From Polyangiales bacterium (lineage in GTDB: Bacteria > Myxococcota_A > Polyangia > Polyangiales > Ga0077539), in contig JBGARZ010000005.1 of NCBI GenBank assembly GCA_044229975.1, positions 224,001 through 288,000 of the forward strand: DNA of 64,000 nt, read 5' to 3'. The position numbers and the translations under genes were made by a program. The notes below the pieces were generated by a model that saw only the letters and a program-made list of their open reading frames with translations, was not told the DNA's origin and searched no databases. Each line of letters starts with the position of its first letter. Within the stretch, counting starts at the first letter, position 1. Positions 524 through 57,814 of this stretch are shown in pieces.

Positions 524-542
524 GGAGGTCGTCCTTCCCCTC

Positions 543-956
543 TCAGCCGTTGATGAAGACCGTCGTCTGGCTCGGCGCCACCTGCGTCCCCGCCGGGACG
601 TTGGCGTTGTTGCCGTTTTGCGGCGTCGTCTTCAGGTGCGTCACCACGTACTGACCTTCGACCAGCACCTTCTTCGACGCCATTTTGTACTTCGCCTTGT
701 TCATGTTGACGTTGGAGATCACGCCCCCGAGCGTGCCCGGCTCGTCGCCGCTGCTCGTCGGAATCTCCGTGCCCTTGTGCAACACGGGTTGGTTCTTGAT
801 CTTGACGTTCTTGGTGACCGTCGACCCGCTCGCGTTGGGACACATCGCGATGTTGGGAAACGGCACCGGGATGGGCGGCGCGGGCGGCGCCGGCACCTTG
901 CACACGTCCGGAAACCCCATGCACTGCCCACCGCCCTTGGTCGACGCAGGAAACAT
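543..956 (-). CDS. PAAR-like DUF4150 spike-tip protein (TagD-like)
   Basis: MFPAST...CMGFPDVCKVPAPPAPPIPVPFPNIA...SSGDEPGTLGGVIS...KVLVEG, matching the DUF4150 signature. 137 aa with no toxin extension. Confidence 0.9.
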   Translation of the reverse strand: MFPASTKGGGQCMGFPDVCKVPAPPAPPIPVPFPNIAMCPNASGSTVTKNVKIKNQPVLHKGTEIPTSSGDEPGTLGGVISNVNMNKAKYKMASKKVLVEGQYVVTHLKTTPQNGNNANVPAGTQVAPSQTTVFING

Positions 957-960
957 CGCG

Positions 961-2781
961 CTATCCCTCCGCGCTCGGTCGTTGTGCCTTGAAGTCTTCA
1001 GCCCCCGCCAGCGCCTCGTCGGTGCCCATCGCCCCCGACCGATCGGCGTCGGCGTACTCCGCCGTCGCATCGACGGTGCGATGAAAGCGCGCCCCGCGGA
1101 GATCACCCCCACCCCAACGCGTGCCCGACAGGTCGCTCTTCGACAGGTCGAGGTAGCGGCCCTTCACGTGCTCGAACGAGCTCCCACGCACGTCGGCCTC
1201 CACCATCTGCGCGCGCTCCAGGCGCGCCACCTCGAAGTGAGCGCTGTGCGCCTTCGTGCCCTCCCAGCGGGTGTCGCGCAGGTCGCTGCCGCGCAGGTCC
1301 CCCTGGTCGACGATCGCGCCCGAGAAGTCTGCGTGGCGGGCCTTCACCGCGCGCATCTTCACCTGCGTCATCGCCGCGCCGCGCAGGTCGGCGCGCACGA
1401 GTGACGCCTCGTCGAGCCGCGTCTCGGTGAGGTTGGCGCCGCGGAAGTCCGCGTCGGTGAAGTCCGCCTCCTTGAGGTTCATCCCGGCGAGCTTGCACCT
1501 CTGCATCGAGCACCGGACGAACACCGCCGCCCTCAAGCGACAACCCGTCAGGTCGAGCCCGTCGAGGTCAGCGCCCGTGAGGTCAGCGCCCGTGAGGTTG
1601 GCCCCCGCCACCGTCGCCCCCGTCCACGTCGTCTCCCCCGCATGAACATGTATCAGCCACGCCTCGGTGAGCTTCGCCTCGACGAGCTGCGCCCGCTCCA
1701 GCGTGGCGCCCTCCATGCGGCAGCGGCTCACGTCGGCCTTGGTGAAGTCCGCTTCGGTGAAGTCGACGCCCGCGAGGTCGCTCCCTGCCAGCGACGCCTC
1801 GCTGAAGTCGGTCATGGGCATCGACGCGCCCTGCCAACCCGTGCCTTCGAGCACGGCCTTCGCGAAGCTCGCCCCCTCGCCCTGCGCCCTGAAGAAGCGC
1901 GCCTCGGTGAAGTTCGCCCGGTCGAGCACCGCGCCCTTGAGCACCGCTCCCTCCAGCGAACACCGCTGCCCCTGCACCCGCGAGAGCGTCGCCTCGGTGA
2001 GCGTCGCGTCGACGAGCGCGGCAGCCTCCAGCACCGCGTCGGAGAGGTCGGCCCGCGTGAGCGTCGCACCCCGCAGCACCGCGTCGCGGAGGATGGCGCC
2101 CTGCAACCGCGCGCCCTCCATCGATGCGCCGGTGAAGTCGAGGCTGGTGAGGTCGAGGCCCGTGAGCTCGGCGTCGCGTAGTTGAGAGCCCGCGAGCGAG
2201 GCGCCCGTGAGCACGACGTCGCGCAGCGAAGCACCCGTGAGCACGGCGTACTTGAAGGTCGCGCGAGCCGCCGACACGCGGGTGAGCCGAGCGTCGGAGA
2301 GGTTGGCGTTGAAGAGGGCGGCGTCGTCGAGGAGGGTGTCCGTGAGCGTGGCGCGGGCGAGGCGCGCGTGCCGAAGCTGGGCGCGGGAGAGGTCGCACCC
2401 CGTGAGCGTGGCGCCCGAGAGGCGGGCGCCCTCGAAGAGAACACCCACGGCGTGACACTCGCGGAGGGACGCACCGCCGAGGTCGATGGCCCCCGCGTCG
2501 CAGGGCTCGTCGGGTCGCCCGAGGATGGCGCAGCGGGAGAGCGTGGCCTCGGTGAGCCGGCAGCCCTGGAGGTCGCACCCGCGGAAGACGACACCCGTGA
2601 GCGTCGCGCCGCCGAGGTCACATTGATAGAAGCGGCACGCCTCGAAGCGGACGTCGATGAGCGTCGCGTCGACGAAGGACTGTCCCTGGAGGTCGACCTC
2701 GCGGACGGAGACGTCGCGCAGCTCGCCGTGGTCGCGGAGGTGTTCGAGCACCGCGTCGAGCGATCGGAGGGTGACGGTCAC
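961..2781 (-). CDS. Pentapeptide repeat protein (T6SS-associated, TagB-like)
   Basis: Almost entirely A(D/N)LxGA-type pentapeptide repeats. The GTG start overlaps the upstream TGA (GTGA). Confidence 0.88.
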   Translation of the reverse strand: MTVTLRSLDAVLEHLRDHGELRDVSVREVDLQGQSFVDATLIDVRFEACRFYQCDLGGATLTGVVFRGCDLQGCRLTEATLSRCAILGRPDEPCDAGAIDLGGASLRECHAVGVLFEGARLSGATLTGCDLSRAQLRHARLARATLTDTLLDDAALFNANLSDARLTRVSAARATFKYAVLTGASLRDVVLTGASLAGSQLRDAELTGLDLTSLDFTGASMEGARLQGAILRDAVLRGATLTRADLSDAVLEAAALVDATLTEATLSRVQGQRCSLEGAVLKGAVLDRANFTEARFFRAQGEGASFAKAVLEGTGWQGASMPMTDFSEASLAGSDLAGVDFTEADFTKADVSRCRMEGATLERAQLVEAKLTEAWLIHVHAGETTWTGATVAGANLTGADLTGADLDGLDLTGCRLRAAVFVRCSMQRCKLAGMNLKEADFTDADFRGANLTETRLDEASLVRADLRGAAMTQVKMRAVKARHADFSGAIVDQGDLRGSDLRDTRWEGTKAHSAHFEVARLERAQMVEADVRGSSFEHVKGRYLDLSKSDLSGTRWGGGDLRGARFHRTVDATAEYADADRSGAMGTDEALAGAEDFKAQRPSAEG

Positions 2782-4865
2782 GTTCGTTCCAGCTTGGTTC
2801 GTTGCACGATGGCGAGGTCGAGGCGGGCGTTGTCGGTCTTCGCTCGATGAAACTCCGCCTCGAAGAGGTTGGCGCCGCGCAGGTCGCACCACGTCAGGTC
2901 GGCGCCCTCGAAGCGCCCTCGCATCAGGTCAGCCCGCTTCGCGCTCGCGCCCACGAGCCTCGCCTCGTCGAAGCAGCAGTCCCGTCCTACGCAGCCGTCG
3001 AGCGAGCACTTCACCATGTCGCAGCCGGTGAAGTCGGCGCGCTCCATCGTCGCGAAGGCCAGCGTCGCCTCGTCGAGCACGCTGCCCGCGAAGTTGGCCC
3101 GCCCGAGCTCCGCGTTGGCAAACGACGCGCGCGCGAAGCGACCGCCGTCGATGGCCCGCAGCCCCGTGGCCACGCAGCCCTCGAAGACGGCGGCCTCGGC
3201 GTTGGCGCCCGCGAGGGTCGCGTCCCGCAGCGTCGCCTTCTGGAAGCGCGCTCGCTCCATACGGGCCCCCGTAAAGTCGGCGCCGCTGAAGTCCCCTTCG
3301 CTGGCGTCGACGTCGCGCAGGTCGGCCTCGCGGTAGTCGGCCCCGGCGGACTTCGCCTGCGTGAGGTGCGCCGTGCGAAGAACGGCGTGCGCGAAGACCG
3401 TGTCGGCGAGGAAGGCCTCGTCGAGGGTGGCGCCCGTGAGGTCGGCGCGGGTGAGGTCGGCGCGCGAGAGCTTCGCGCGTTGGAGCGTGACCCCAGTGAG
3501 GTTGGCGCCCGTGAGGTCGGCCTCTTCGAGCACGGTGCGGTACAGCGTCGCGCCGGAGAGGTTGGCGCCCGCGAGGATCGACCCGCTGAAGTCGGCGCGG
3601 GAGAGGTCGAGGCCCGAGAGGTCGGCGCCCGTGAGGTCGAGGCCCGCGAGCGGCTCGCCGTGCGAGCGAAGGCGCAACACCTCGGCGCGATGAACGGCAC
3701 CAGGGCTCGGCGCCTCCGCGGGCGCATCAGCAGCGACCGGGAGAGCGGCCAGCGCCTCGGCGAGCACGATGTGCTGGGCCGGGAGCGGAGGGACTTCGTC
3801 GACGCCGTCTTCGGCGGCGCGCTCGGCTTCGAGGGCCGCGATGCGCGCGAGGCAGTCGGCGGTGGACTGCGGCGCGTCGAGAGGCTCCTGCAAGAGGGCG
3901 ACGCGGAGGATGTCGTCGAGGGAGTCGTCGGTGATGGGGGTGAGTCCGCGCCAGAGGCACATCACCTGTCGCGCGTCGGCGTCGAGGGTGATGGTGTCGA
4001 GGTTCATCCGGGCCTCGGTGACGACGTCGGCGTCGCCCACGCGGCGGGTGACGAAGCAGCGGACGCGCGTCGCGGGGAGACGCGAACGCAGCGTGGGAAG
4101 CGCGGGGTCCATCCCGGTGAGCTCGACGGGTTCGTCGCCGCGCCAGTAGCCGTCGATGCGCTGCGACGGAGGGGCGGCCTGGAAGTAGGTCGGATCGAAG
4201 TCCGTCGGGTACCAGGGCCAGCGGGTGCGCTTCCAGGTCTCGTCGTAGGTTCCGGTCAGGGCGGTGCGGGCGCGCCAGGTGCGTGGAATGGGGAAGGCTC
4301 CAGCGGGTGCGGGGCGGTCACCCGTCGAGCGGACGAGCGCGTCGGGGTCTTCGATGAGCGGCAGCGGGACGAGCGATCGGCCGTCGACGTCGACCGGGTC
4401 GAGGCCGCGGCCGACGGGGTTGTGGGGGGAGGATGATCCGCCGAAGGAGTGCTCCCATTGGAGGGTGAGCGTACGGAAGGGAGCGGGGTCGGTGGGTGCG
4501 CCCGCGCGATCGAAGTAGCGCGCGCCAAACACCATGAAGCGACGGTGGATCGCGCCCACACGGAAGGCGACGGCGGCGACGGTGGCCTCGCCGCCGGGCG
4601 CGTGACAGGTGCCTGCGAGGAGACACTCGCCGCGGGGTTTGAGCGACGCGAGGTCGGACTCGAAGCGGAGCGAGGGGTGGTCGCGCGTGGGGTCTTCGAA
4701 GGGCTCGTCGCCGGTGACGAGACGGGGCTCATCGGCGGGCGTGGCGACGCCGTCGGCGACGAGGTCGAAGGTGGACTTGACGACCAGGGTGAGCGCCCAT
4801 TGCGGTGGCTGGAGCTGCCACGCGAGGTGACCAAACGCGAAGGGAGTGTCGTTGAGGAGGTCCAC
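2778..4865 (-). CDS. DUF2169 T6SS adaptor fused to pentapeptide repeats (TagAB-like)
   Basis: N-terminal NDTPF...LTLVVKSTFDL...ESDLASLKPRGE...SFGG...NPVGRG...YFQAAP...LDTITLD (DUF2169), then C-terminal pentapeptide repeats. Confidence 0.9.
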   Translation of the reverse strand: MDLLNDTPFAFGHLAWQLQPPQWALTLVVKSTFDLVADGVATPADEPRLVTGDEPFEDPTRDHPSLRFESDLASLKPRGECLLAGTCHAPGGEATVAAVAFRVGAIHRRFMVFGARYFDRAGAPTDPAPFRTLTLQWEHSFGGSSSPHNPVGRGLDPVDVDGRSLVPLPLIEDPDALVRSTGDRPAPAGAFPIPRTWRARTALTGTYDETWKRTRWPWYPTDFDPTYFQAAPPSQRIDGYWRGDEPVELTGMDPALPTLRSRLPATRVRCFVTRRVGDADVVTEARMNLDTITLDADARQVMCLWRGLTPITDDSLDDILRVALLQEPLDAPQSTADCLARIAALEAERAAEDGVDEVPPLPAQHIVLAEALAALPVAADAPAEAPSPGAVHRAEVLRLRSHGEPLAGLDLTGADLSGLDLSRADFSGSILAGANLSGATLYRTVLEEADLTGANLTGVTLQRAKLSRADLTRADLTGATLDEAFLADTVFAHAVLRTAHLTQAKSAGADYREADLRDVDASEGDFSGADFTGARMERARFQKATLRDATLAGANAEAAVFEGCVATGLRAIDGGRFARASFANAELGRANFAGSVLDEATLAFATMERADFTGCDMVKCSLDGCVGRDCCFDEARLVGASAKRADLMRGRFEGADLTWCDLRGANLFEAEFHRAKTDNARLDLAIVQRTKLERT

Positions 4866-10220: not shown

Positions 10221-11135
10221 TCAGCGCGGGCGCCGCTCCGATGCGTTCACGCGGACGGCCGGGGCGCAGAGCGGCGCGGCTTCGACGGTACGGGCCTCGA
10301 CGTCGGCGAGCGTCGAGCCGATCAGGGCGCCCCCGGCGAAGTAGGTCCCGGTGTCGCTGGCCGGCAGGATGTCGTAGGTGGCGTCGTACGCGTAGGCCTC
10401 CGACGACACCCCCTCGACGCGCTGCCCGCCCAACCAGTCGCCCACCCGGAGCGCTCCGAACGTGCGCCCGTCGGCCGTCGGATGCCCGGCGCTCACGTGC
10501 AACTCGAGGCCGCTGCCGAGCGCTACCCGCACGACGACGTGGTGGCTTACGGGGGTGCGGTTCACGCGGAGAATCGGAACGAACACGCGGCTGCCATGGT
10601 CGATGCTCTCGACGAGGTCGCCCACGCGCAGCGACGCGATCGGGCGGTCGCCATCGGGGGTTGCGATGGGCGTCCACGGCGACGCGCACCTGCACTGGCA
10701 GTTGATGCAGTGGATGCCGTCGGCCTCGACCGAGCCGCAGTGGGTGCAACCGCCGCACGGGTCCGCCGCGAAGCAGCCGCACGCCAGGGCCCCTGAGCAT
10801 CCCGGCGGGATCGGCACACACTGCGGCGGCACCTCGCAACAGCCTGCGCACCGGCCGCGGATGCAGATCTCTCCAGACGCGCACGCCGCGTCGCCGCACG
10901 GGGCCGCGTCCGACGGAACGACGTCGATGGCGTCGATGGCATCGACCGCGTCGATGGCGTCGACGGCGTCGATGACATCGATGACGTCACTGGCGCGAGC
11001 GGCATCGAGGGGACCCGCGTCGACGGCACTCGCAGTGGACGCGCACGCTGCGCCCGACAACGTGATGATGACGATGGCCATCGAGCCATGGGTCGTGGGC
11101 GATCGAGTGGGAAGCCTGACGCGCGAGTCGCTCAT
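10221..11135 (-). CDS. Cys-rich exported protein with C-terminal Hint (Hedgehog/intein-like) domain
   Basis: Hydrophobic leader ending GAAC, then a Cys-rich region, then CASPWTPIATPDGDRPIASLRVGDLV (block A), VSAGHP (block B), TYDILP..GTYFAGGALIGST (block F/G-like). Start may be the internal Met (MAIVII). Confidence 0.8.
   Translation of the reverse strand: MSDSRVRLPTRSPTTHGSMAIVIITLSGAACASTASAVDAGPLDAARASDVIDVIDAVDAIDAVDAIDAIDVVPSDAAPCGDAACASGEICIRGRCAGCCEVPPQCVPIPPGCSGALACGCFAADPCGGCTHCGSVEADGIHCINCQCRCASPWTPIATPDGDRPIASLRVGDLVESIDHGSRVFVPILRVNRTPVSHHVVVRVALGSGLELHVSAGHPTADGRTFGALRVGDWLGGQRVEGVSSEAYAYDATYDILPASDTGTYFAGGALIGSTLADVEARTVEAAPLCAPAVRVNASERRPR
10921..10988. repeat. 9-bp coding tandem repeat (D-[VA]-[IV] linker)
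   Basis: Imperfect (cgtcgatgg)n-type array encoding DVIDVIDAVDAIDAVDAIDAIDV. Confidence 0.75.
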
Positions 11136-13939: not shown

Positions 13940-16783
<2,844 letters not shown>

Positions 16784-16892
16784 GGCGGGTTCTCGCCGCA
16801 TGCGATGCGGGACGGAGGGGTGCAGTGTCAAGCGCGGCACCGGACCCTGAGCTTCGGAGTAGGGGTCGTGACCACGCGAGGCGCTCGTCATC

Positions 16893-17027
16893 GGTCCTCA
16901 CAAGGGACCGGCGTTCATGAGAACGACGGAATCCAGAGCGACAGAACGCTCTTCGACGGGTGACCGAGACGTGGTGGGTTGCCCCGGATTCCGGCGTTCT
17001 CACGAACGCCGGTCCCTTGTGGGGACC
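16893..17027. repeat. Inverted repeat doublet (42-bp arms), REP/REPIN-like
   Basis: 16893-16934 is the reverse complement of 16986-17027 with 3 mismatches. Each arm has two small hairpins (GGTCCC-N5-GGGACC and GGCGTTC-N4-GAACGCC). Confidence 0.85.
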
Positions 17028-17167
17028 AGCGACATGGCGGTCCTCATGTACGCCGCCAACACCTACTCCGAATCCAAGCCGGGCCGACGGACGAACCGGC
17101 GATCGACGGCGGCCCCGATGGACGGCGCGTTGACACCGCGAACGCCAACGCGGTGAGATCGCCGCCG

Positions 17168-19303
17168 ATGCGCCCGTGGGGATGGACACTTGCGCTGCTG
17201 ATGGGCTGCATGCGGGCGCACCCGATGGCGTCCGCGACCGCACCGACGCCACCGACGCCACCGACAACCGCATCGCCTGCCTTCAGTTGTCGCGGACCAG
17301 CGCCTCCGCCCATCCCTGCGCGGCCGCGCCACTCACCCTCGCCGCCGGGTCGGCTCGTGATCCAGCGGCTCGCACTCCCTTCCGCGACACCTCGCGCGCG
17401 CACGGAGGGAGAGCCGACCCTGCCCTTCGCGGGTCTGCGTCTGCGCGTCGTCGCCGAGAACACCCCCCTCCCGCGCTTCGCCGCGGCCCTCGCGGAGGCG
17501 ATCGGCTTCGGGGTGATGGTTCCGCTCGACGCGTACGACCTCCAGGTGACGGTCGCCTCGCCCGATGTGAGCGTCGACGATCTGCTCAGGACGCTGCGGT
17601 TCGTCGGCGTGCGACACCGCCTCGACGCCCACGACCCGCACCGACCGCCGCGGCCCGACGAGGGACAGCACGGTATCGACGCCGAAGGAGTGCTCCGCCT
17701 GGACGCCGCGGAGACGCTCGCCGCCGCGGCCGTCCGCGCCGTCCACGCGGACCGGTACAACACCACGCGGCGAGTGTTCGCGCCGCGCGCGGGCCTACGC
17801 TTCGCGGAGGTCGCCCGGTACTACTGCGACCGGCTGGCGTCGCCCTTCGGGGCCGCCGACGTCGTGGAGGGGCGCCTCATCGTGACCGACCTCGCGCCCC
17901 GCATCGAACAGGCCGAAGGGCTGTTGCACTCGCTCGAAACCCACGACGCGCCCGCGACGCCAACGCCGCCGTTCAGTTGTGGCAACCCCCCGCGGGTGTC
18001 CCCGCTCTCGTCCGAGCTCGACGCCGTCCCGCTCTTCGCGCGACCGCCCGATCCGCCCGCTGGGAGCCTCGTCGTCCAGCGGTTGCCGGGTCCGCTCGGC
18101 GCCCTCCTTCCGCGAGAGCAGAGCGAACCTCCGCCGGCATCGTACGCGGGCGTACGACTGCGGGTCGCGGCGGAGGCCGTCCCCCTCTGGCGCTTCGCGC
18201 AGGCGCTGTCGGAGACGCTGCGGATCACGGTCGCGGTCGCGCCCGGGAGCCTCGACGAGACGGTGACGCTCGCCTGGCCCGACGTGACCGCCGAGCGATT
18301 GCTCCGCGTGCTGCCGGACGTCGAAGGCATCGGAGACGCGCTCGTCCTGGGCGACGGCTCCGACTACCACGCCCGGCGCAACCTGGTGGAAGGCCCCCCG
18401 CCCGCCGAGGAGACGCGGGCGTACTCGGTGCCCGCGGCGGTCCCGCCGGAGCTTGCGGCGCGGCTCTACTGCGAGCTGGACGGACCCGGGGGTGGCACCG
18501 CCGACGTCGTCGCCGGGCGGCTCGTGGTACGCAACTACGGGTGGTCAGCCGACCGCATCGAGGACGACCTTCGACGGCTCGCGGAGTTCGTCACCCAGCG
18601 TCACCGCGAGGAGAGACCGCTCTTCACCTGCCACGGGCCGCCCGAGCCCCCGCGGCCCACGCCGCCTCCATCGACCCTCCCCCTCCCCGCGCCGGGAAGA
18701 CTCATCGTCCAGCGGCTCCCGCTGCCGCCGGCGGTCGCGCAGCCGAGCGAGCACACCGATCGATCCCGGTACGAAGACCCGACGCCGTTGCCCTTCGGGG
18801 GCGTGCGACTGCGGATCGTCGCGGAGGGCGCCCCGCTCCGTCGCGTGGCGGTGGCGCTGTCGGAAGCGCTGCGAATGGGCGTCGTGTCGGGGGGAGACTG
18901 GCCCGAGCTGCCCGTGACCATCACCTCGTCGGACATCACCGTCGACCAGCTCTTCCCCGCCCTGGAGCACATCGGCGTGTTCGTCACCTTCCGAGAAAGC
19001 CTCGGCCTCCTGACCCTGGTGTCGCGCGAGCCGATCGGCTCACCGGTGGTCCGGATTCGCGGGTTCCACGACCCCATCATCGCCGAGACTCGCCTGATTC
19101 CCGTGGACCCCGGCGTGTCCGAAGAGGCGGTGGCGCGACACTACTGCGAGCGCCTGGCGTCCCCCATCGGCGCGGCCGCGTCGATCGGCGGCCTGCTGAT
19201 CGTGCACGACTACGGTGATGTGCTGAGCCGCGCCGAGCTCCTCGTCCGCGAGCTGGCGTCGCCGACCGCTCCCTCCGGCGATGCGGGTGCCGCCGCGCGT
19301 TGA
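17168..19303 (+). CDS. Putative lipoprotein with three secretin N0/N1-like (STN + NolW-like) modules
   Basis: Leader ending LMGC, then three copies of F(S/T)C..G(R/S)L(V/I)xQRL..(F/Y)xG(V/L)RLR(V/I)xAE...TR...YC...GxL(I/V)V. The domain identity is inferred by eye. Confidence 0.6.
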   Translation: MRPWGWTLALLMGCMRAHPMASATAPTPPTPPTTASPAFSCRGPAPPPIPARPRHSPSPPGRLVIQRLALPSATPRARTEGEPTLPFAGLRLRVVAENTPLPRFAAALAEAIGFGVMVPLDAYDLQVTVASPDVSVDDLLRTLRFVGVRHRLDAHDPHRPPRPDEGQHGIDAEGVLRLDAAETLAAAAVRAVHADRYNTTRRVFAPRAGLRFAEVARYYCDRLASPFGAADVVEGRLIVTDLAPRIEQAEGLLHSLETHDAPATPTPPFSCGNPPRVSPLSSELDAVPLFARPPDPPAGSLVVQRLPGPLGALLPREQSEPPPASYAGVRLRVAAEAVPLWRFAQALSETLRITVAVAPGSLDETVTLAWPDVTAERLLRVLPDVEGIGDALVLGDGSDYHARRNLVEGPPPAEETRAYSVPAAVPPELAARLYCELDGPGGGTADVVAGRLVVRNYGWSADRIEDDLRRLAEFVTQRHREERPLFTCHGPPEPPRPTPPPSTLPLPAPGRLIVQRLPLPPAVAQPSEHTDRSRYEDPTPLPFGGVRLRIVAEGAPLRRVAVALSEALRMGVVSGGDWPELPVTITSSDITVDQLFPALEHIGVFVTFRESLGLLTLVSREPIGSPVVRIRGFHDPIIAETRLIPVDPGVSEEAVARHYCERLASPIGAAASIGGLLIVHDYGDVLSRAELLVRELASPTAPSGDAGAAAR

Positions 19304-19337
19304 CAGCGCGAACGTCGGCGCGGTGTGATCGGCGTCG

Positions 19338-20081
19338 ATGCATCCCCGGGGATGGACCCTCGCGTTGCTCGTGGGCTGCACCCGTACGCTGCCGGTCGCG
19401 CCGACCCCCGCGCCCGCCGCCTCACCGCCGTACTTCAGTTGCCGCGGCCCCGCGTCGCCACCCGTCGTCACGCGCGCGCATCATCCGCCCGCGCCGCCGG
19501 GTCGGCTCGTGGTCCAGCGGCTCGCCCCCCCGCCCGGAACACCCCGCGCCCGTGAAGAGCACGACGACCCGCCGCTGCCCTTCGCGGGCGTGCGCCTGCG
19601 GGTGGTCGCCGAAAACGCCCCGATCGCACGCTTCGCGGCCGCCCTCGCGGAGGCGCTCGGCGTCGCGGTGATCGTGCCTCTCGACGCGCACGACCTCCAG
19701 GTGACGGTCTCGTCGCCCGACGTGACCGTCGACGATCTGCTCCGTCTGCTGCCGCTCGTCGGCGTCCAGCACGAGCTCTCCCCCAGGGGGTTGCTCCGCC
19801 TCGCAGCGACGGAGACGCTCAGCGAGGTGATCGCCCGCAACGAGTGGAGGAACGATCTCCGCACCGCGCGGCGGGTGTTCGCCCCGCGCGCGGGGGTGCC
19901 CTTCGCGGAAATCGCCCGGCACTACTGCGACCATCTCGCATCGACCCACGGGACCGCCGACGTCGTCGACGGGCGCCTCGTCGTGCACGACTTCGAGACG
20001 TACATCGAGAGCGTCGAGCGGCTGCTGCGGGCGTTCGAGTCGCGTGGCGCGTCGCAGGTGCGGCTGGGCGGCCGACCGTGA
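19338..20081 (+). CDS. Putative lipoprotein with one secretin N0/N1-like module
   Basis: Lipobox LVGC. Close paralogue of module 1 of the upstream gene. Confidence 0.6.
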   Translation: MHPRGWTLALLVGCTRTLPVAPTPAPAASPPYFSCRGPASPPVVTRAHHPPAPPGRLVVQRLAPPPGTPRAREEHDDPPLPFAGVRLRVVAENAPIARFAAALAEALGVAVIVPLDAHDLQVTVSSPDVTVDDLLRLLPLVGVQHELSPRGLLRLAATETLSEVIARNEWRNDLRTARRVFAPRAGVPFAEIARHYCDHLASTHGTADVVDGRLVVHDFETYIESVERLLRAFESRGASQVRLGGRP

Positions 20082-21565
20082 CGCCCCGACGACCGCGCGT
20101 CGGCGGATGGCTCCTCGCGTTGCTCGTAGGCTGCGCGCGACCCACGCCCGTCACCGTGACGCCCGCGCCCGCGACGCCGCCGTCCTTCAGTTGTCGGGGC
20201 AGCGGCAGGGCATCCATCTTCCGCCCCGCGCCTGTCCCACCGCCTCGTTTCGAGCGCCCGCCCGTCCCCGCGCCGGGGCGGCTCGTCGTCGAGCAGCTGC
20301 CGGGCCCGCCCGGTGCTCTCCTGCCGCGCGGCGAGGGCGAGCCACCGGCTCCGGTGTATGCGCGCGTGCGGCTGCGAATCGTGGCCGACGCGGTTCCGCT
20401 CCCGCGCGTCGCGGCGGCGCTCTCCGAAGCGCTCCGGGTCACCATCGCGGTCGCGCCCGAGGGCCTCGACGACGTCGTGTCCATCGTGTGGCCCGACGTG
20501 ACCGCCGAGCGCCTCTTCGAAGAGCTGCGCGGACGACGCAGCCGCGACGACGGGATCGTCCTGGGCGCCGACGAGTCTCACCTCGTCGAGCGCCCGCGGC
20601 GCAGCGAGCCCGACCTCTTCGAGACGCGGACCATGCAGACGGAACTCCCGTTGCCGCCTGAGCAGGCCGCGCGAATCTTCTGCGAGCAGGTCTCGTCCGA
20701 ACGGGGCGGCGCCGACGTGATCGCGGGCCGCCTCGTCGTGCACGACTACGAGCTGTCGGTCCGCCACTTCGAGGCCCTGCTCCAAGGCATCGCCGCGCTC
20801 CCGACGTCGCCCGACCGAGGTCCGACGACGCCGTTTGGCTGCCACGCCCCGGCGCCGCCGACCGCGCCGCCTGCCGCGCTCCGGCCGCTCCCTGTGCCCG
20901 GCGGAGTCGTGATCCAGCGCCTCCCGCTGCCACCAGCGGAGGCGGAGCGTCGCGAACCGCGCGCCCTGTCCCGGGAACCCGAACCGCCACTGCCCTTCGG
21001 CGGCGTGCGCCTGCGGGTGGTCGCCGAGAACGCTCCGCTGCGGCGCCTCGCGGTGGCGCTGTCGGACGCGCTGCACGTGGGCGTCGCGGCGGACGGAGAG
21101 TGGCCCGACCTGCCGGTGGCGATCGCTTCGCGTGACGTGACCGCCGACCGGCTCTTCTTCGCGCTGGAGCAGGTCGGCGTCGCCGTCGATTTCGACGAGC
21201 GCCTCGGGTTGCTTCAACTGCGCGCGTGGGAGCCGGTCGGCGAACCAGTGGTCCGGGTGCACGGACACCCACGATTCCGTGACTACGGCACCCGCGTGAT
21301 CGCCCTGCGTCGCGAGGCGTCAGGAGAGGCGGTCGCGCGCTACTACTGCGAGCGCATCGCCTCCGAGATCGGGTTGGTCGAGGTGCTCCGCGGCGGGCTC
21401 CTCGTGCGCGACTACGGAACGCAGTTGAGGAACATCGAGGCCTTCGTCGGATCGCTCGCGCCGCCCCCCACGACCCCGACGGCTCTTCCTGCCGACGCCG
21501 GGGTCACCGCGCCGCCCGAGCCCATCCGACCGCGCGATACGGTCACCCTCTCGGGACGTCGATGA
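20078..21565 (+). CDS. Putative lipoprotein with two secretin N0/N1-like modules
   Basis: GTGA overlap with the upstream gene, lipobox LVGC. Paralogous to modules 2 and 3 of 17168-19303. Confidence 0.6.
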   Translation: MTPRRPRVGGWLLALLVGCARPTPVTVTPAPATPPSFSCRGSGRASIFRPAPVPPPRFERPPVPAPGRLVVEQLPGPPGALLPRGEGEPPAPVYARVRLRIVADAVPLPRVAAALSEALRVTIAVAPEGLDDVVSIVWPDVTAERLFEELRGRRSRDDGIVLGADESHLVERPRRSEPDLFETRTMQTELPLPPEQAARIFCEQVSSERGGADVIAGRLVVHDYELSVRHFEALLQGIAALPTSPDRGPTTPFGCHAPAPPTAPPAALRPLPVPGGVVIQRLPLPPAEAERREPRALSREPEPPLPFGGVRLRVVAENAPLRRLAVALSDALHVGVAADGEWPDLPVAIASRDVTADRLFFALEQVGVAVDFDERLGLLQLRAWEPVGEPVVRVHGHPRFRDYGTRVIALRREASGEAVARYYCERIASEIGLVEVLRGGLLVRDYGTQLRNIEAFVGSLAPPPTTPTALPADAGVTAPPEPIRPRDTVTLSGRR

Positions 21566-21576
21566 CGCCCGTCTGA

Positions 21577-22818
21577 CTACCCTCTACGAACGGCCCGCCC
21601 GCGACGCCGCGTCCACGCCAACGCGATCGCCGCCAGCACCGAACCCCACCCGGCGCCACCACCACTCGCACCGATCGTGCGGCACCCGCAGTCGCCACGG
21701 AGATCACCACCGAGGCCGCCGTCGATGCCGATCGTCGAGCTGTCGTCCGCCGCCACATCAACGACGCGCGCATCCCGAACGCCTAGGTCGTTGACCACGC
21801 CCGCGTCGTCTTCGATGGGTGCGCCCGCGTCGACGATCACCCCCGCATCCACCGTCGGCATCGGCGCCACGCAGCCCGTCGGAGTGCACGTCCTCCCCCC
21901 CGTCGCGCAGTCCTCCGACACCGGGCGCGTGCCGTCGCAGCGCACGAAGCGCGATCCCTCGCAGCGTGGCCCCGGCAGCAACGCCCGGCCCGACGCCGGA
22001 TCACACCGCAGGCAGTTGAAGCCCTCGGTGTCGTTCTGCCAGGCGCACACTCCTCCGCGGCCGAGGCACTCGGCCTCCATGGGCGCGCCGTCCATGCACC
22101 AGCGCAGCGTCTCGCCCTCGCAGCGCCCGCGGTAGTCGAGCGCGCCGCAGCTCGGGCCCGCCACGCGGGCGTACGCCTCGTTGCCGTAGGCGGCGGGTTG
22201 AATCCACTGGATGGTCACGCCACGGCACACCGACTGGCACCCCGGCGCATCGACGAAGGTCGACGACACCACCGACGCCCGAACATACGCCGGCGTCGGG
22301 CACCCCGGGTCGACCGGTCCGCCGCAGTAGTTGCGCGTCGTCGCGAGGTGCAGATGCAGATGTGCCCCGACGCCGCCCGTGTTGCCCGACAACCCGATGC
22401 GCGTTGTCGTGGTGACCGACGCGCCCACCGCCACGTCGATGCGCGACAGGTGCATGTACGTCACGAAGTACGTCGCGCCGAGGCCCGGCACGGTGCTGCC
22501 GTCGTGACGCACGCGCACCCACAGACCCGCGTTGCCGTAGTCCGCGGTGCGCGCGTCGTTGGGGTTGACCGCGTCCACCACGCCCGGCGCCACGGCGTAG
22601 AGGGCGGTGCCCACGCCCATCGCGACGTCGTAGCCGTTGTGCGTTCCGCAGCCCTCGCGGCCGCCGCAATAGGTGATGTAGTCGCCGTAGTAGCCCTGCG
22701 TGAGCCGCGCCCGCGCCGCGGTGCCGCGGTCGACCGGCCAGTGCATCCACCCTTGGGCCTGGGCCTCGGCGCCCGCGAGCAGAACGGCGACGGCGAGAGC
22801 AACGGTCGAACGAGGCAT
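21577..22818 (-). CDS. M23 family metallopeptidase with Cys-rich region and MYXO-CTERM sorting signal
   Basis: HNGYD, YMHLS and SGNTG..HLHL motifs. The C-terminus is GDCGCRT..hydrophobic..RRR. Confidence 0.88.
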   Translation of the reverse strand: MPRSTVALAVAVLLAGAEAQAQGWMHWPVDRGTAARARLTQGYYGDYITYCGGREGCGTHNGYDVAMGVGTALYAVAPGVVDAVNPNDARTADYGNAGLWVRVRHDGSTVPGLGATYFVTYMHLSRIDVAVGASVTTTTRIGLSGNTGGVGAHLHLHLATTRNYCGGPVDPGCPTPAYVRASVVSSTFVDAPGCQSVCRGVTIQWIQPAAYGNEAYARVAGPSCGALDYRGRCEGETLRWCMDGAPMEAECLGRGGVCAWQNDTEGFNCLRCDPASGRALLPGPRCEGSRFVRCDGTRPVSEDCATGGRTCTPTGCVAPMPTVDAGVIVDAGAPIEDDAGVVNDLGVRDARVVDVAADDSSTIGIDGGLGGDLRGDCGCRTIGASGGGAGWGSVLAAIALAWTRRRGRAVRRG

Positions 22819-25487: not shown

Positions 25488-26990
25488 ATGACCATCGACC
25501 CCGTCCAGCGTCGTCCCATCGAGGCGCATCTGCCGACCATGCACGTCGGCCGCTACCAGCTCATCACGCCGCTCGGTCGCGGCGCGATGGCCACCGTGCA
25601 CCTCGCCCGCAGCGTCGGGAGCGCCGGCTTCGAGCGCCTCGCCGCCGTGAAGGCGCTGCACCGCGACCTCTGCTCCGATCGCGACCTGGTCGAGCGCTTC
25701 CTCGACGAGGCACGGCTCGCGGCACGGCTGCACCACCCCAACGCCGCGGCCATCCTCGACGTCGGCGTCGACGGCTGGCAGCCGTACATGGTCATGGACT
25801 ACGTCGAGGGCGACACGCTCCACGCCGTCCAGTGCACCGCCGTCTCCCGCCGAGAAGCGCTGCCGCTGGGTGTCGTGCTGCGCGTGGTGCTCGACGCGCT
25901 CGCGGGCCTCGACGCCGCCCACGAGCTGCGCTCCGCCGAGGGCGAACCGCTCGGTCTCATCCACCGCGACGTCTCGCCGCACAACGTCCTCGTCGGGGTC
26001 GACGGCGTCGCGCGGCTCATGGACTTCGGCATCGCCCGCGCGGCCACCCGACGACGCGCGACGGCCAACGGCATCGTGCAGGGCAACGTGCAGTTCATGG
26101 CCCCCGAGCAGCTCCGCGGGCGAGCGCTCGACCGCCGCGCGGACGTCTTCTCCATGGGCGTCACGCTGTGGGAGACGCTCGCGCTGCGACGGTGCTTCCC
26201 GCTGCGGGAGGGCGCTTCGATGGCGCGCTTCGCGCTCGAAGAGTACCGCTCGCTCGGGGAGCACGCGCCCGAGGCTCCGGCCGCGCTCGACGCCATCTGC
26301 CGACGCGCGCTGGCCGTCGAGCCCGACGACCGCTACGCCACCGCGGCGGCCTTCGCCTCCGCCATCGAAGAAGCCTTCGGACGCGACGTCGCGACGCAGC
26401 GCGAGCTCGGGCAGTTCATGTCCGCGGTGGCGGCCGAGAAGGTGGCGCGCGAGCGCAACGCCGCCCGCGCATCGGCGCAACCGCTGCCGGGACGAACAGA
26501 GGCCGCGCTCTCGCTGCGAACCACGGCGGCCGACCAGGGAGGGCGCTTTCCGGCCATCGCCACCGCGCTCCAGAACAAGCTCAGCACCCGTCGCTTTGGC
26601 GCGCTCCCGTCGCCCGCGGGCGCGGGGTCGCTCTACGACGCCGTCACGCAGGCGCTCTTCCGCCGCAGCCATGCGACCCGCCACGTCATCGCTCCGTGTC
26701 CCGAGCCGGCGACGGTCAAGGTGCGCGCGATGCCTTCGCGGCCGCCGTCGTTTGCCGCGCGGCCCACGTTGCGCCCGGCGCGTTCGTCCGCTCGTCCACC
26801 GCCCACGGGGCTCGACGGGCCCACGCGTCCGATGTCGGCGCTACGTCGCTCGCGTGCGCCCGCGGCGCTGTTGCTGGCGGCACCGGCGCCACAACGGACG
26901 CGCTGGTTTGGCGGGCTGCGGGCGCTGGCCGCGAGGCTCTGGTCGCGGTGGGGCGGAGTTGTTCGGGGTGAGAGAATTGAACTCCCATAG
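25488..26990 (+). CDS. Hanks-type Ser/Thr protein kinase
   Basis: GRGAMATV, HRDVSPHNV, DFGIA and MAPEQ motifs. The stop codon lies inside the antisense tRNA-Gln. Confidence 0.9.
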   Translation: MTIDPVQRRPIEAHLPTMHVGRYQLITPLGRGAMATVHLARSVGSAGFERLAAVKALHRDLCSDRDLVERFLDEARLAARLHHPNAAAILDVGVDGWQPYMVMDYVEGDTLHAVQCTAVSRREALPLGVVLRVVLDALAGLDAAHELRSAEGEPLGLIHRDVSPHNVLVGVDGVARLMDFGIARAATRRRATANGIVQGNVQFMAPEQLRGRALDRRADVFSMGVTLWETLALRRCFPLREGASMARFALEEYRSLGEHAPEAPAALDAICRRALAVEPDDRYATAAAFASAIEEAFGRDVATQRELGQFMSAVAAEKVARERNAARASAQPLPGRTEAALSLRTTAADQGGRFPAIATALQNKLSTRRFGALPSPAGAGSLYDAVTQALFRRSHATRHVIAPCPEPATVKVRAMPSRPPSFAARPTLRPARSSARPPPTGLDGPTRPMSALRRSRAPAALLLAAPAPQRTRWFGGLRALAARLWSRWGGVVRGERIELP

Positions 26991-27033
26991 CGGGCACCAA
27001 AAACCCGCGTCCTAACCGTTGGACGAACCCCGA
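26962..27033 (-). tRNA. tRNA-Gln (anticodon UUG)
   Basis: Cloverleaf TCGGGGT/ACCCCGA acceptor, GTCC/GGAC D-stem, CGGGT-TTTTGGT-GCCCG anticodon arm, GGGAG-TTCAATT-CTCTC T-arm. Has the U1-A72 pair, and CCA is not encoded. Confidence 0.93.
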
Positions 27034-28805: not shown

Positions 28806-29837
28806 CTACCGCGGAGCGTCGACGGCAGGGCCGCCGTCGCGGTCCATCGGAGAGACCACCGACTCGCAGAACGCACCGGGTCGCACGGCGCCAAGCCGCA
28901 TCACGGTGCTGCTCAGCGCGCATCGTGTGCCCTGGTCACGGCAGTCGACGTCCGACGCGCATCGTCGACGACACTGCGCCGCGTAGCACTCGAACAGCTC
29001 GGGCAGATCGCCCGGCAGCACGCAGTCCGTCGACACCGCGCACGCCCGCGGCCGCGACGGCACCGCGCCGACATAGAACGCCTCCGCCACGCTGGTCGCC
29101 ACGACCCGCCCCCCGCGGATCGCATACACGAACCACCAGTACTGCCCGGTCGGCAGCGTGTCGCCACCCCACGGCGGACCGAAGGCACCGTCGCGCGAGA
29201 CGCCCCGATGACCGAAGCGAACGGGCACCGTCCCGTCGACCGCACGACCATCACCCAGGGTGTTGCCCGGCTCCGCCGTCGACCACGCCCAGGTCACCGC
29301 CGACCAGTTGCTGATGCGACCGCGCGCAGGATCGAACGATGGCGGCTGTCGCGACACCATCGCCACCGTGATGGCGTCCGCGGCGCCCCGCAGCGGCTGC
29401 CAGCGGAAGGAGAATCCCGTCGTCGGGAAGAGCTCGGTGTCCTGCGTCGGACCTTCGAGCTCGATGCGCCCCTCCACTGGAAACACCGCCCGCGACGGCG
29501 GTTGAAACGAACACCGCCCGCGACCATCGGGCGCCACCGTCGACAGGTCACAGCGCGCATCGGGGTAGCACTGACCTTCGATGGGGGCCTCGGGGTCGCA
29601 GGTTCCGAGCGGGGGCGTGCAGTAGCCGACGGGGTTGCCGCCCACGCGAACGCAGACCTCGTTGCGCGAGCGGCAGTCCGTCGTGCGCTGACATTCTTCC
29701 CTCGCCCCGGCGTCGATGCTCGCGTCGAGCTCGGGGAGGTTGCTCACGCCCCTGTTAGCGTCGGCGCAGGCCGCGAGGCACCACGCACCAAGCGCCACCA
29801 CGAGGCCGGAGAGCAGCACGCTGTAGCTACGGTTCAT
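28806..29837 (-). CDS. Cys-rich lipoprotein, tandem paralogue 2
   Basis: Lipobox LAAC. Nearly identical to the upstream gene over most of its length. Confidence 0.8.
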   Translation of the reverse strand: MNRSYSVLLSGLVVALGAWCLAACADANRGVSNLPELDASIDAGAREECQRTTDCRSRNEVCVRVGGNPVGYCTPPLGTCDPEAPIEGQCYPDARCDLSTVAPDGRGRCSFQPPSRAVFPVEGRIELEGPTQDTELFPTTGFSFRWQPLRGAADAITVAMVSRQPPSFDPARGRISNWSAVTWAWSTAEPGNTLGDGRAVDGTVPVRFGHRGVSRDGAFGPPWGGDTLPTGQYWWFVYAIRGGRVVATSVAEAFYVGAVPSRPRACAVSTDCVLPGDLPELFECYAAQCRRRCASDVDCRDQGTRCALSSTVMRLGAVRPGAFCESVVSPMDRDGGPAVDAPR

Positions 29838-30853
29838 CGCGGCGCATCGACGGCAGGTCCGCCGTCACGGTCAATCGGGGTGACCACCGTCTCGCAGAAC
29901 GCACCGGGTCGCACGGCGCCAAGCCGCATCACGGTGCCGCTCAGCGCGCATCGTGTGCCCTGGTCGCGGCAGTCGACGTCCGACGCGCATCGCCGACGGC
30001 ACTGCGCCGCGTAGCACTCGAACAGCTCGGGCAGGTCGCCCGGCAGCACACAGTCCGTCGACGCCGCGCACGCCAGCGGCCGCGACGGCGTCGCCCCCAC
30101 GACGAACGCCTGCGCCACGCTCGTGGCGATCACCCGCCCCCCGCGGATCGCATACACGAACCACCAGTACGACCCCGCTGGCAGCGTGTCGCTCTCCCAC
30201 GCCGGACCGAAGGCACCGTCTCGCGAGACGCCCCGATGACCGAAGCGCACCGGCACGGTCCCATCGACCGCGCGACCGTCGCCGAGGGTGTTGCCCGGCT
30301 CCGCCGTCGACCACGCCCAGGTCACCGCCGACCAGTTGCTGATGCGCCCACGCGCCGGATCGAACGACGGCGGTTGTCGCGACACCATCGCCACCATCAC
30401 CACGTCGCCACCGTCCCGCAGCGGCTGCCAGCGGAAGGAGAAGCCCGTCGTCGGGAAGAGCTCGGTGTCCTGCGTCGGACCTTCGAGCTCGATGCGCCCC
30501 TCCACCGGAAACACCGCCCGCGACGGCGGCTGAAACGAACATCGCCCGCGACCATCGGGCGCCACCGTCGACAGGTCGCAGCGCGCGTCGGGGTAGCACT
30601 GCCCCTCGATCGGAGCCTCCGGGTCGCAGGTCCCCGATGGCACCTCGCAGAAGGCGTTGATGCCATCGCGGCGCATGCACACCTCGTTGCGCGAGTCGCA
30701 GTCCGCCGTGCGGTTGCAGCGCTCCCCGACCGTCGCCCCCGCGTCCACCGCAGGACTGGGAAGGCTGGTCGCAGCGTCGCTCCCACACGCCAGGAGCAGC
30801 CACGACCCAAGCACCAGCGCGAGGGTGGACAGCAGCGGGCGGACGGCGTTCAT
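29834..30853 (-). CDS. Cys-rich lipoprotein, tandem paralogue 1
   Basis: Lipobox LLAC, with ATGA overlaps to both neighbouring genes. Confidence 0.8.
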   Translation of the reverse strand: MNAVRPLLSTLALVLGSWLLLACGSDAATSLPSPAVDAGATVGERCNRTADCDSRNEVCMRRDGINAFCEVPSGTCDPEAPIEGQCYPDARCDLSTVAPDGRGRCSFQPPSRAVFPVEGRIELEGPTQDTELFPTTGFSFRWQPLRDGGDVVMVAMVSRQPPSFDPARGRISNWSAVTWAWSTAEPGNTLGDGRAVDGTVPVRFGHRGVSRDGAFGPAWESDTLPAGSYWWFVYAIRGGRVIATSVAQAFVVGATPSRPLACAASTDCVLPGDLPELFECYAAQCRRRCASDVDCRDQGTRCALSGTVMRLGAVRPGAFCETVVTPIDRDGGPAVDAPR

Positions 30854-32160
30854 GGCTCGACTCCAACTCCGATCAGGGCGCCGAGTTGCACGAGCGATGC
30901 CATCTCCGTCGAGATGGTCGCCGCGCCCAGGTTGCTGAACTGCCGCCCCCGCGGCCCCACCCCCGGAACCCACAGCGTCCGCAGCCCCGCGAACACCGTC
31001 CACGGCCCCGCGAAGCGCAGCCCCACCAGCAGATCGCCCACCAGCCCGACGCGCGCGACCGCTTCGGAGAGCAGCGTTCCGTCGGTGCGCCGCTCTTCAC
31101 CGCGCGCGGCCACGGCGCCCGAGACCAGCGCGGTCAGTCGGAGGCGGTCGCCTGTGCCGCCAGGGGCCACCGTGACACCGCCGCCCAGCTCCAGGAGGCC
31201 GAAGCTCGCCGACGTCGCTCCGTCGGCCGCCACCTGGGTCGTCGGGCCCACCAGCTCGGTGTCGCGCGAGTACCCACCAAAGGCCGCTCCGAGGTGCGCC
31301 ACCGCGCGAACGCAGGTGTCCGCGAGGGGACACGTCTCGCCCGTGCGGCTGCTGCGGGTCGGGACGTCCACCGCGAGCAGGGCGCCCGCACCGTCTGCCT
31401 GGAGGAAGCCCAAGGTCGCACCGAGGCGCAGCGAGAGGCCGCCCAGCACGTGACCCGCGTAGTGCGCCGTCACGGCGACGCTGCGCGACGGATCGGTCGC
31501 AGAGAAGCCCGCGCTGGCCAGACCGAAGGAGGGCGTGCGTACCGCGAGACCGACGTCGCCGGGCGTGGCGGCGAGGGAGACCACGCACCAGTGCGATCCG
31601 GTGGGCGGGGACTCGCCCGCGCAGGTTCCGCGGAAGACCTCGGCCTCGCGCTCGCTGCGGGCGTCGGGGCGTAGATCGACCTCGCGCAGACCCGCGGCGG
31701 TGAGCTCGCGGTGGGTGCCGGAGCGCTCGATCTGCACGGCGAGGGAGACGTCGCGAGCGCGCGGGACGAGGGTGATGCGAATCTGGCGGGCGGAGGTTCC
31801 GGCGGCGGGGAGCTGGGCTTCGCAGCCGAAGTAGCGGCGTGAGGCGAGGCCGTCGACGCGCAGGGTGTACGAGCCGTCGGTGGGCAGCGTGATGAAGCGA
31901 CGAAGGGGCGCGCCGGCCTCATCGTCCTCGCGAACGCGGGTGGGCAGCGGGTCGCTCGCGCCGTACGCGACGGGGATGAGCGCGCCGACGTCACCGGGCG
32001 TGAGGCGCTCGCCGGAGAGGGCGTCGATGAAGTCGAAGACGTGCTCGGTGCCGAGGCTGGCGCGGAGGGTCTCCTCGACGGGCGCGACGGGTCGCGGCTG
32101 CGGATCGCTCGCGGGGACGAGCTCGATGGCACAACGAAGCTGGGCGGCGAGGAGAAGCAT
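30850..32160 (-). CDS. Hypothetical protein with probable C-terminal outer-membrane beta-barrel
   Basis: Alternating Gly/hydrophobic strands in the C-terminal half. First gene of a translationally coupled 3-gene operon. Start uncertain. Confidence 0.55.
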   Translation of the reverse strand: MLLLAAQLRCAIELVPASDPQPRPVAPVEETLRASLGTEHVFDFIDALSGERLTPGDVGALIPVAYGASDPLPTRVREDDEAGAPLRRFITLPTDGSYTLRVDGLASRRYFGCEAQLPAAGTSARQIRITLVPRARDVSLAVQIERSGTHRELTAAGLREVDLRPDARSEREAEVFRGTCAGESPPTGSHWCVVSLAATPGDVGLAVRTPSFGLASAGFSATDPSRSVAVTAHYAGHVLGGLSLRLGATLGFLQADGAGALLAVDVPTRSSRTGETCPLADTCVRAVAHLGAAFGGYSRDTELVGPTTQVAADGATSASFGLLELGGGVTVAPGGTGDRLRLTALVSGAVAARGEERRTDGTLLSEAVARVGLVGDLLVGLRFAGPWTVFAGLRTLWVPGVGPRGRQFSNLGAATISTEMASLVQLGALIGVGVEP

Positions 32161-57740: not shown

Positions 57741-57814
57741 GGGCCTATAGCTCAATTGGTTAGAGCCCCTGACTTATAATCGGGAGGTTTCGGGTTCAAG
57801 TCCCGATGGGCCTA
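57741..57814 (+). tRNA. tRNA-Ile with UAU anticodon (tRNA-Ile2-like body)
   Basis: GGGCCTA/TGGGCCT acceptor, GCTC-AATTGGTTA-GAGC D-arm, CCTGA-CTTATAA-TCGGG anticodon arm (TAT at 57775-57777), TCGGG-TTCAAGT-CCCGA T-arm, discriminator A. CCA is not encoded. Confidence 0.92.

Follow-up and report, generated by a model that had tools for sequence, protein, structure and literature searches.

A 64,000-nucleotide stretch of the genome of a Polyangiales bacterium (GenBank assembly GCA_044229975.1, contig JBGARZ010000005.1, positions 224,001–288,000; hereafter the window) contains three adjacent genes built from six copies of one protein module, which raises the question of where such modules come from and what they could do for the cell. 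The modules correspond to a PilQ-type N0-helix-N1 segment without the secretin barrel. This homology is solid: sequence profiles, language-model features and predicted fold agree, in line with a first-pass annotation that had likened the modules to secretin N0/N1 domains.

Three lipoprotein genes and six modules

The first-pass annotation read the locus as three co-oriented genes with Cys-terminated leaders and 3, 1 and 2 modules, which translation and module alignment bear out (Table 1); the leaders are hydrophobic and lipobox-like in all three genes, with the terminal Cys at residues 14, 14 and 19. All three open reading frames (ORFs) are stop-free with gene-like GC content by codon position (third-position GC 0.86–0.90), and the start of gene 3 overlaps the stop of gene 2 (GTGA). 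The modules are about 215–240 residues long, each opens with F-x-C (residues 39/269/486 in gene 1, 33 in gene 2 and 37/253 in gene 3), and exactly two Cys per module occur beyond the leaders (6/6 modules). Pairwise identities range from 33 to 63%, with module-versus-module tblastn E-values of 1e-6 to 1e-45, and define three pairs: A/A' (63%), B/B' (49%) and C/C' (54%). Invariant columns include F1, C3, the RLR motif, D96, A-R-x-x-C165, G173, G180 and L-x-V. Judged from the sequence, the layout A-B-C, A', B'-C' is that of a triplet that was duplicated, with one copy fused and the other split. DNA repeats of 61–83% identity, ~2.1–2.2 kb apart and including the leader region, agree with this triplet duplication.

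Homology to the PilQ N0-helix-N1 segment

Standard resources miss these proteins, which escape Pfam, NCBIfam, PHROGs and PADLOC; Pfam matched 0/8 queries made from window modules and proteins at E≤1, so that even STN was not reached. A profile of the six modules gave nothing meaningful against PDB sequences (best E 0.088), a single-protein homologue search returned only the query itself, and a word-indexed profile search returned 3 proteins. Against 85,007 six-frame ORFs of the host genome, the six-module profile found one non-self ORF above noise (E 8e-4), with a match that spans the STN and Secretin_N region; the value falls to E 0.47 when the profile is limited to core columns. This ORF is host PilQ, which sits in a pilM-N-O-P-Q-aroC operon on contig C32, away from the window contig.

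A family profile (A2), built from 92 single-module proteins, gives a much clearer picture. It recognizes the modules of gene 1 (E 1e-41, 3e-31 and 8e-45) and matches host PilQ with 96% probability (E 2e-9, 153 columns), HofQ (2.6e-6), Vibrio cholerae PilQ (4.8e-6) and XcpQ (1.6e-5); no secretin from type III secretion systems (T3SS) is matched at E≤1. Across the host genome, A2 finds the six modules and PilQ only, so that PilQ is the sole non-self match. The genome has three secretin-domain genes, all on contigs other than that of the window, and a GspD-sized secretin scores 10.6 bits versus 52 for PilQ. Secretin_N (PF03958) is found weakly in 10/92 family members (best E 8.8e-5), and ESM Atlas features indicate NolW/STN clusters (0.92; families on 11–33% of members). 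The N0-N3 linker helix is present in PilQ and absent from type II secretion system (T2SS) and T3SS secretin structures (PMC7545093, excerpt); since the N0-N1 linker here is a helix, the source of the modules is probably PilQ-type. For descent from the T3SS secretin SctC, the profile matches are to HofQ, PilQ and XcpQ, the linker is PilQ-type, and the tree described below was built without SctC.

Predicted fold

The AlphaFold model of P0002, the product of gene 2 (pLDDT 86, pTM 0.61), consists of a strand (33–36), a second strand (56–62), N0 (86–157), a helix (161–173) and N1 (176–243). The linker helix appears in both models made (161–173; 129–138), with low pLDDT there (44–62). In the structure searches that the first-pass annotation had proposed, secretin N-domains rank first: N0 matches EscC (Z 9.1, root-mean-square deviation (rmsd) 2.2 over 81 residues), GspD N0 (Z 8.5, rmsd 2.2 over 75) and Myxococcus xanthus PilQ N0 (Z 8.1, rmsd 1.9 over 74), and a further match is PilQ N3 (Z 7.0, rmsd 2.2 over 57). 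The best Foldseek match of the first model is to T2SS secretin N-domains. Two-domain matches have high rmsd because domain orientation differs, as with 4av2 (Z 9.6 over 152 residues, rmsd 15.7). Not far behind the secretin N-domains come N0-like folds from TonB-dependent systems and phage hubs. Two strands are predicted by the model to be additions to the PilQ-type segment, here called the FxC and GRLV strands; one alignment of the P0002 model to HofQ N1 spans residues 32–235 and groups the FxC strand with N1.

Coevolution across 130 modules gave 13 pairs at z≥5, compared to 6–9 in six shuffles. Just two pairs, R179-E227 (10.6) and V216-V226 (8.3), score above the maxima of all shuffles (6.4–7.9), and lid-strand couplings with i+j of about 148 (R61-L87, z 6.7) lie inside that shuffled range.

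A dispersed family of predicted lipoproteins

A search of 1.84 billion representatives produced 120 hits, from which P0096 (repeat), P0102 (Cys repeat) and P0124 (STN-TPR) were dropped as chance matches and P0004/P0006 as the window's own, leaving 115 further representatives. With the three window proteins and P0138 the family comprises 119 proteins: 98 have one N1-containing module, 17 have two, 1 has three and 3 are fragments. The secretin barrel (PF00263), noted as missing in the first-pass annotation, was found in 0/8 window queries and in 0/92 and 0/25 family proteins. Nearly all family chains stop within ~20 residues of N1, and a search among proteins of 598–2000 residues returned only the window's own protein, which is weak evidence for the lack of a barrel. 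The family is apparently undescribed, likely myxobacterial and made mostly of single-module lipoproteins. The annotation knew of no system with this architecture, and a literature search likewise found no description of such a family, with most subscription journals outside its reach. Viral contigs yielded 25 pattern matches and no confirmed relative, and viral structure matches are to filamentous phage pIV-type secretins only.

A lipobox-like Cys occurs in 70/85 proteins with an intact N-terminus, according to a home-made rule. At position +2 (71 proteins), Ala occurs 34 times, Lys never and Asp once. In M. xanthus, Lys at +2 marks 8/12 inner-membrane lipoproteins (PMC3222651, excerpt). Since +2 is never Lys and only once Asp, these predicted lipoproteins are likely located in the outer membrane, with the extracellular matrix as a possible alternative.

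The annotation also noted two conserved Cys per module and proposed a disulfide between them. The conservation holds family-wide: the N1 Cys is present in 92/92 rows; among the 69 rows that cover the position of the FxC Cys, 97% have it; and the mature form of 43/58 single-module lipoproteins contains exactly two Cys. Cys counts and conservation make the disulfide plausible, and the coupling of C35 with C197 (4.7, against 1.3–3.2 in shuffles) is a weak signal. Two proteins, P0115 and P0116, and a third at locus L066 are reduced to FxC plus N1, which indicates that the FxC Cys belongs with N1 and that N0 can be lost. In tandem proteins, the distance from the N1 Cys to the next FxC Cys is 48–58 residues in 12/14 cases, which leaves about 3–12 residues after the last helix. 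P0049, possibly an assembly chimera, has a pirin domain fused to a partial module that is 100% like that of P0072.

Divergence, tree and selection

PilQ and the family were compared using 31 PilQ-like and 118 family rows. Within PilQ, N0 is 77% and N1 66% identical; the corresponding values are 27% and 30% for the family, and 15% and 28% for family against PilQ. The PilQ N0 beta1 charges D71, D73, D76 and D78 are replaced, with position 73 hydrophobic in 59% of the family. On the N1 sheet, hydrophobic residues persist on both faces (90–98% at profile positions 161, 162 and 195–197), and the S-x-R-G, D199 and R160/E208 positions are retained in family N1; sequence comparison thus marks N1 as the conserved core of the family.

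In a quick tree of 68 rows (19/33 PilQ-like, 49/118 family modules), with support values from the Shimodaira–Hasegawa-like approximate likelihood-ratio test (SH-aLRT) and no bootstrap, the PilQ-like rows all fall to one side of a long branch (SH-aLRT 100). The six window modules group with P0007-P0009 (97) and are paired A/A', B/B' and C/C', which makes the window cluster a local expansion that descends from a single ancestor. Orthologues in a Hyalangium-type clade have a median ratio of nonsynonymous to synonymous substitution rates (dN/dS) of 0.20 across 36 pairs of 9 distinct sequences, and 0.44–0.69 in the 8 pairs with the most distant sequence, which indicates that they are under purifying selection.

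Barrel-less PilQ fragments also exist outside the family. Two Myxococcaceae genomes (loci L081, at 1483-2040 (-), and L078) encode a separate 185-residue fragment with a non-lipoprotein leader and strong STN and Secretin_N matches. It is much closer to PilQ, stops before the last N1 helix and has no Cys pair. Going by its sequence, this fragment is a candidate dominant-negative form or partner of PilQ in Myxococcaceae, and it suggests that barrel-less PilQ truncations arise repeatedly. Host PilQ itself is short, a 530-residue ORF (L001:8258-9850 (-), contig C32) with STN, Secretin_N and Secretin matches and no AMIN match; PilQ ORFs in the host's family are mostly 520–610 residues long versus 730–980 in other families.

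Distribution and gene neighbourhood

The family is patchily distributed. Family-level matches were found in 0/8 congeners, 1/18 genomes of the host's family, 7/401 genomes of its order and 5/401 of its phylum (the latter two both include this genome), and in 10/151 genomes of the family of Hyalangium, where Hyalangium versicolor is a cultured carrier. Misses are possible in the large scans because they scored 7–19 candidates per genome. A motif scan of GTDB genomes gave 15 loci, of which 11 were confirmed (9 from labelled Myxococcota groups, 2 other or unspecific); pattern loci L055, L056, L068 and L069 had no profile match.

The genes that border the block are directly adjacent, with the block absent, in 3/5 congeners searched; the remaining 2/5 gave no match to the M23 gene. 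The block has host-like GC content and no integrase beside it. The annotation saw no pilus or T2SS genes nearby, and a scan of 44 other window ORFs (13 + 31) likewise found no match to a pilus or T2SS Pfam family and no T3SS or type IV secretion system (T4SS) genes. Neighbours differ between loci, with the exception of the syntenic Hyalangium-type clade beside dapD; tandem single-module genes occur at locus L067. The six-module cluster reflects local expansion within a wider family, most of whose members are lipoproteins with one module, and does not represent a conserved system.

Possible roles

The reading that we favour, at a probability of roughly 0.3, is that these proteins dock via N1 on host PilQ secretin rings or assembly intermediates and act as accessory modulators, positive or negative, of this putative partner. 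For the six PilQ-derived N0-helix-N1 copies, which lack a barrel, a lipid anchor in the outer membrane and a disulfide staple are predicted; the copies could serve as caps or spacers in pilus-pore assembly. The FxC Cys would bond to the Cys on N1 helix 1. Because of this bond, the lipid tether (a median of 18 residues from lipid Cys to FxC Cys in 67 proteins) would position N1 close to the membrane, with N0 reaching further into the periplasm, as in PilQ. Lipid and staple would stand in for the barrel as membrane attachment, with N1 domains side by side in the PilQ orientation. The GRLV strand may cover the N0 beta1 edge that PilP and GspC normally bind, the uncovered hydrophobic N1 sheet would bind a neighbouring ring-building domain, and tandem modules would represent pre-linked side-by-side arcs. 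N3 domains, which secretin oligomerization requires, form rings via a consistently hydrophobic interface (PMC6155069, excerpt). Sequence comparison indicates that this ring-building N1/N3 part is what the family conserves, in line with N1 docking. A PilQ-level second match also turned up in 4/5 carrier genomes searched in depth.

Several observations weigh against docking on PilQ. The exposed N1 sheet could equally bind its own copies or an unrelated partner. PilQ motifs are gone from the family, namely the acidic beta1 pattern and P-W in N0, and S-Y-A and the D-E-R-T hairpin in N1. PilQ is near-universal and conserved here (66–77% identical among 31 PilQs), whereas the family is rare and only 27–30% self-identical, an unexpected pattern for a protein that binds a conserved surface. 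Carrier G741 had no PilQ-level match at E≤1e-5. The neighbourhood survey in Myxococcota that the annotation had called for gave no pilus or secretion link: such families matched 0/79 neighbours at 15 loci (NCBIfam, E≤1e-25, so that small pilins could be missed; the 79 remain from 108 listed after removal of family genes, shadow frames and duplicates), and among 218 ORFs compared no neighbour recurs across lineages. Window paralogue pairs have dN/dS of 0.71–0.91, uncorrected for GC bias, which suggests relaxed or diversifying selection. A family member at L048:7510-9036 (-) is split over two frames inside N1 and is either a broken gene or an assembly error.

It is also quite conceivable that a PilQ fragment was co-opted as the disulfide-locked scaffold of a polymorphic outer-membrane or surface lipoprotein, used in adhesion, kin or prey contact, or as outer-membrane exchange cargo, independently of any secretin. 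Patchy, orphan, fast-diverging and locally amplified genes, the lost PilQ surface motifs and the high paralogue dN/dS (0.7–0.9) fit this view, and Tgl, the pilotin of PilQ, is among the outer-membrane lipoproteins that myxobacteria exchange (PMC3325183, excerpt). However, Pfam scans found no variable recognition or toxin domain attached to the modules, the exposed hydrophobic N1 sheet is retained family-wide, and the orthologues of one clade are syntenic and conserved.

Rather more doubtful is that the modules build their own lipid-anchored periplasmic rings or arcs, as a barrel-free scaffold (like DotD or RhcC1) for another envelope machine or for a barrel without N-domains, e.g., a Tad-type secretin. 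The host does have a Tad-type secretin without N0/N1 matches. Retention of the hydrophobic N1 sheet, the short and constant inter-module linkers, the coexistence of fused (A-B-C) and split (A' + B'-C') forms and the tandem single genes at L067 would suit a self-assembling scaffold. XcpQ N-domains self-assemble without the barrel, although XcpQ N01 alone is monomeric (both PMC5646246, excerpt). With the FxC staple sitting on N1 helix 1, one face of the ring may be obstructed, and no partner machine lies beside any member examined. A four-copy complex prediction (P0002 residues 29–242, alignment A2) gave a score of 0.08 and a mark of 0.42, which is evidence neither way. The FlhA/SctV-like gene of the host, which might have pointed to a T3SS as the machine, is accompanied by no further T3SS gene in a scan of 17 neighbours.

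That gene (L092:17212-19278 (+), contig C38; FHIPEP) is a lone one, also without flagellar genes among the same neighbours, and has similar partial matches in 8/8 congeners. FlhA/SctV-like genes do not track the family, because they are present in 28/31 relatives and 19/20 carriers, and a T3SS partner was rejected.

A broader version of the docking idea is unlikely: polymorphic, chromosomally encoded lipoproteins, in which lipid and staple replace the barrel, would hang from the outer membrane, insert up to three linked PilQ-like segments into PilQ rings or cap them, and would be passed between myxobacterial cells by outer-membrane exchange, switching the pores of neighbours up or down.

Distinctly unlikely are decoys, which the annotation had listed among its options. 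N0 domains would capture PilP (or GspC) and disconnect the secretin from its inner-membrane platform, e.g., with less piliation and phage adsorption. PilP and GspC do bind N0 beta1/alpha1 (PMC3441751 and PMC3169554, excerpts), a periplasmic N0 binder is dominant negative on a T2SS (PMC5646246, excerpt), and the patchy distribution resembles that of conflict genes. Yet this role is disfavoured because N0 has lost PilQ surface residues, including the beta1 charges, and some members lack N0. In addition, strand 56–62 of the model may fill the binding site, and PADLOC matched 0/3 window proteins. The annotation's suggestion of a phage-receptor mimic has found no support.

Non-functional remnants of pilQ duplications drifting to loss are very improbable, since the frameshifted copy at L048, the high window paralogue dN/dS and the patchiness are set against family-specific gains (lipobox, FxC, an N1 Cys in 92/92 rows and the GRLV strand), purifying selection among orthologues, six intact modules with both Cys and a long branch that parts all PilQs from the family.

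Type IV pilus assembly is known to be controlled mainly at cytoplasmic motors or at pilotins. If docking on PilQ is correct, a host protein made out of the ring segment of the secretin itself would provide a new point of control at the outer-membrane pore, with a bearing on motility, predation and sensitivity to phages. The naturally occurring forms with one, two or three modules, or with N1 only, could become tools for understanding how N3 interfaces seed or stop secretin assembly, and the family is testable because a cultured carrier, H. versicolor, exists. The family is also a source of annotation error, because databases miss the window proteins and one member carries a GspD secretin label in its source.

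Other features of the window

Coordinates of the block and its borders are given in Table 1. No sigma-70 promoter or terminator match was found across 16700–21800.

Table 1. Genes, modules and bordering genes of the block, in window positions.
Feature	Position	Strand	Description
Gene 1 (P0001)	17168..19303	+	711-residue predicted lipoprotein, modules A-B-C
Gene 1 leader	17168..17209	+	Ends in lipobox-like L-M-G-C14, predicted lipidation site (sequence and home-made heuristic)
Module A	17282..17971	+	Residues 39-268; FxC strand, GRLV strand, N0, helix, N1; Cys41/Cys220
Module B	17972..18622	+	Residues 269-485; Cys271/Cys435
Module C	18623..19300	+	Residues 486-711; Cys488/Cys660
Gene 2 (P0002)	19338..20081	+	247-residue predicted lipoprotein, single module A'; lipid Cys14 (predicted), Cys35, Cys197
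Gene 3 (P0003)	20078..21565	+	495-residue predicted lipoprotein, modules B'-C'; lipid Cys19 (predicted)
Module B'	20186..20833	+	Residues 37-252; Cys39/Cys202
Module C'	20834..21562	+	Residues 253-495; Cys255/Cys424
Radical SAM-DUF2344 gene	13940..16783	-	Left border of block, outside the system
Secreted M23 peptidase gene	21577..22818	-	Right border of block

Elsewhere in the window, the end of a Phage_GPD (VgrG-like) gene lies by DUF2169-pentapeptide and pentapeptide-repeat genes (2-4865 (-)) and resembles a type VI secretion vgrG island. The gene at 10221-11135 (-) encodes a Cys-rich, secreted-looking protein that combines a D-A-I-D repeat with a Hint-like domain at its C-terminus (PF13403, E 1e-4), and two near-identical tandem Cys-rich predicted lipoproteins (ORFs of 343 and 389 residues, no Pfam match) are encoded at 28806-31003 (-). 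ARAGORN identifies a tRNA-Gln at 26961-27033 (-) and a tRNA-Ile with an unusual TAT anticodon at 57741-57814 (+), the latter by a XerC/D-like recombinase gene.

Comparison with known systems

The closest likeness is to the N0-coil-N3(N1) segment of PilQ and HofQ (PF07660 + PF03958; 6w6m, 4av2, 2y3m, 3jc8; TIGR02515, NF007851), with the same two domains in the same order and linked by a helix. Unlike PilQ and HofQ, the modules have no secretin barrel or AMIN domains, lie outside pilMNOPQ and lack the P-W, S-Y-A and D-E-R-T motifs; they add a lipoprotein leader, two strands, a conserved Cys pair and one to three tandem copies. The N0-N1 domains of XcpQ/GspD (PF21305) in T2SSs are related by profile (E 1.6e-5), but T2SS N-domains are joined by loops (PMC7545093, excerpt), whereas this family has a helix.

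Two kinds of barrel-less precedent exist. RhcC1 (NolW) of rhizobial T3SSs is likewise an N-terminal secretin fragment that stands alone (PMC3459982, excerpt; PMC4500985). It derives from a T3SS secretin, has a fixed place in the T3SS cluster and complements the Tad-like barrel RhcC2 (PMC4500985; PMC3459982, excerpt), whereas the window family is PilQ-type, orphan, predicted to be lipid-anchored and probably Cys-stapled. Legionella DotD (3ady, 6x62) is an outer-membrane lipoprotein with an N0 fold and an N-terminal lid strand on beta1, like the predicted GRLV strand (PMC2951367, excerpt), and matches the model with Z 8.1 and rmsd 2.7 over 83 residues; Xanthomonas VirB7-N0 (6gyb) matches with Z 5.9 and rmsd 3.6 over 75. 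Both consist of N0 alone, lacking the helix and N1, and are core components of T4SS clusters, whereas the modules here carry N1 and have no T4SS genes among the neighbours scanned. The proteins of this locus are thus not secretins, as they have no barrel, and they differ from both the RhcC1 and DotD precedents.

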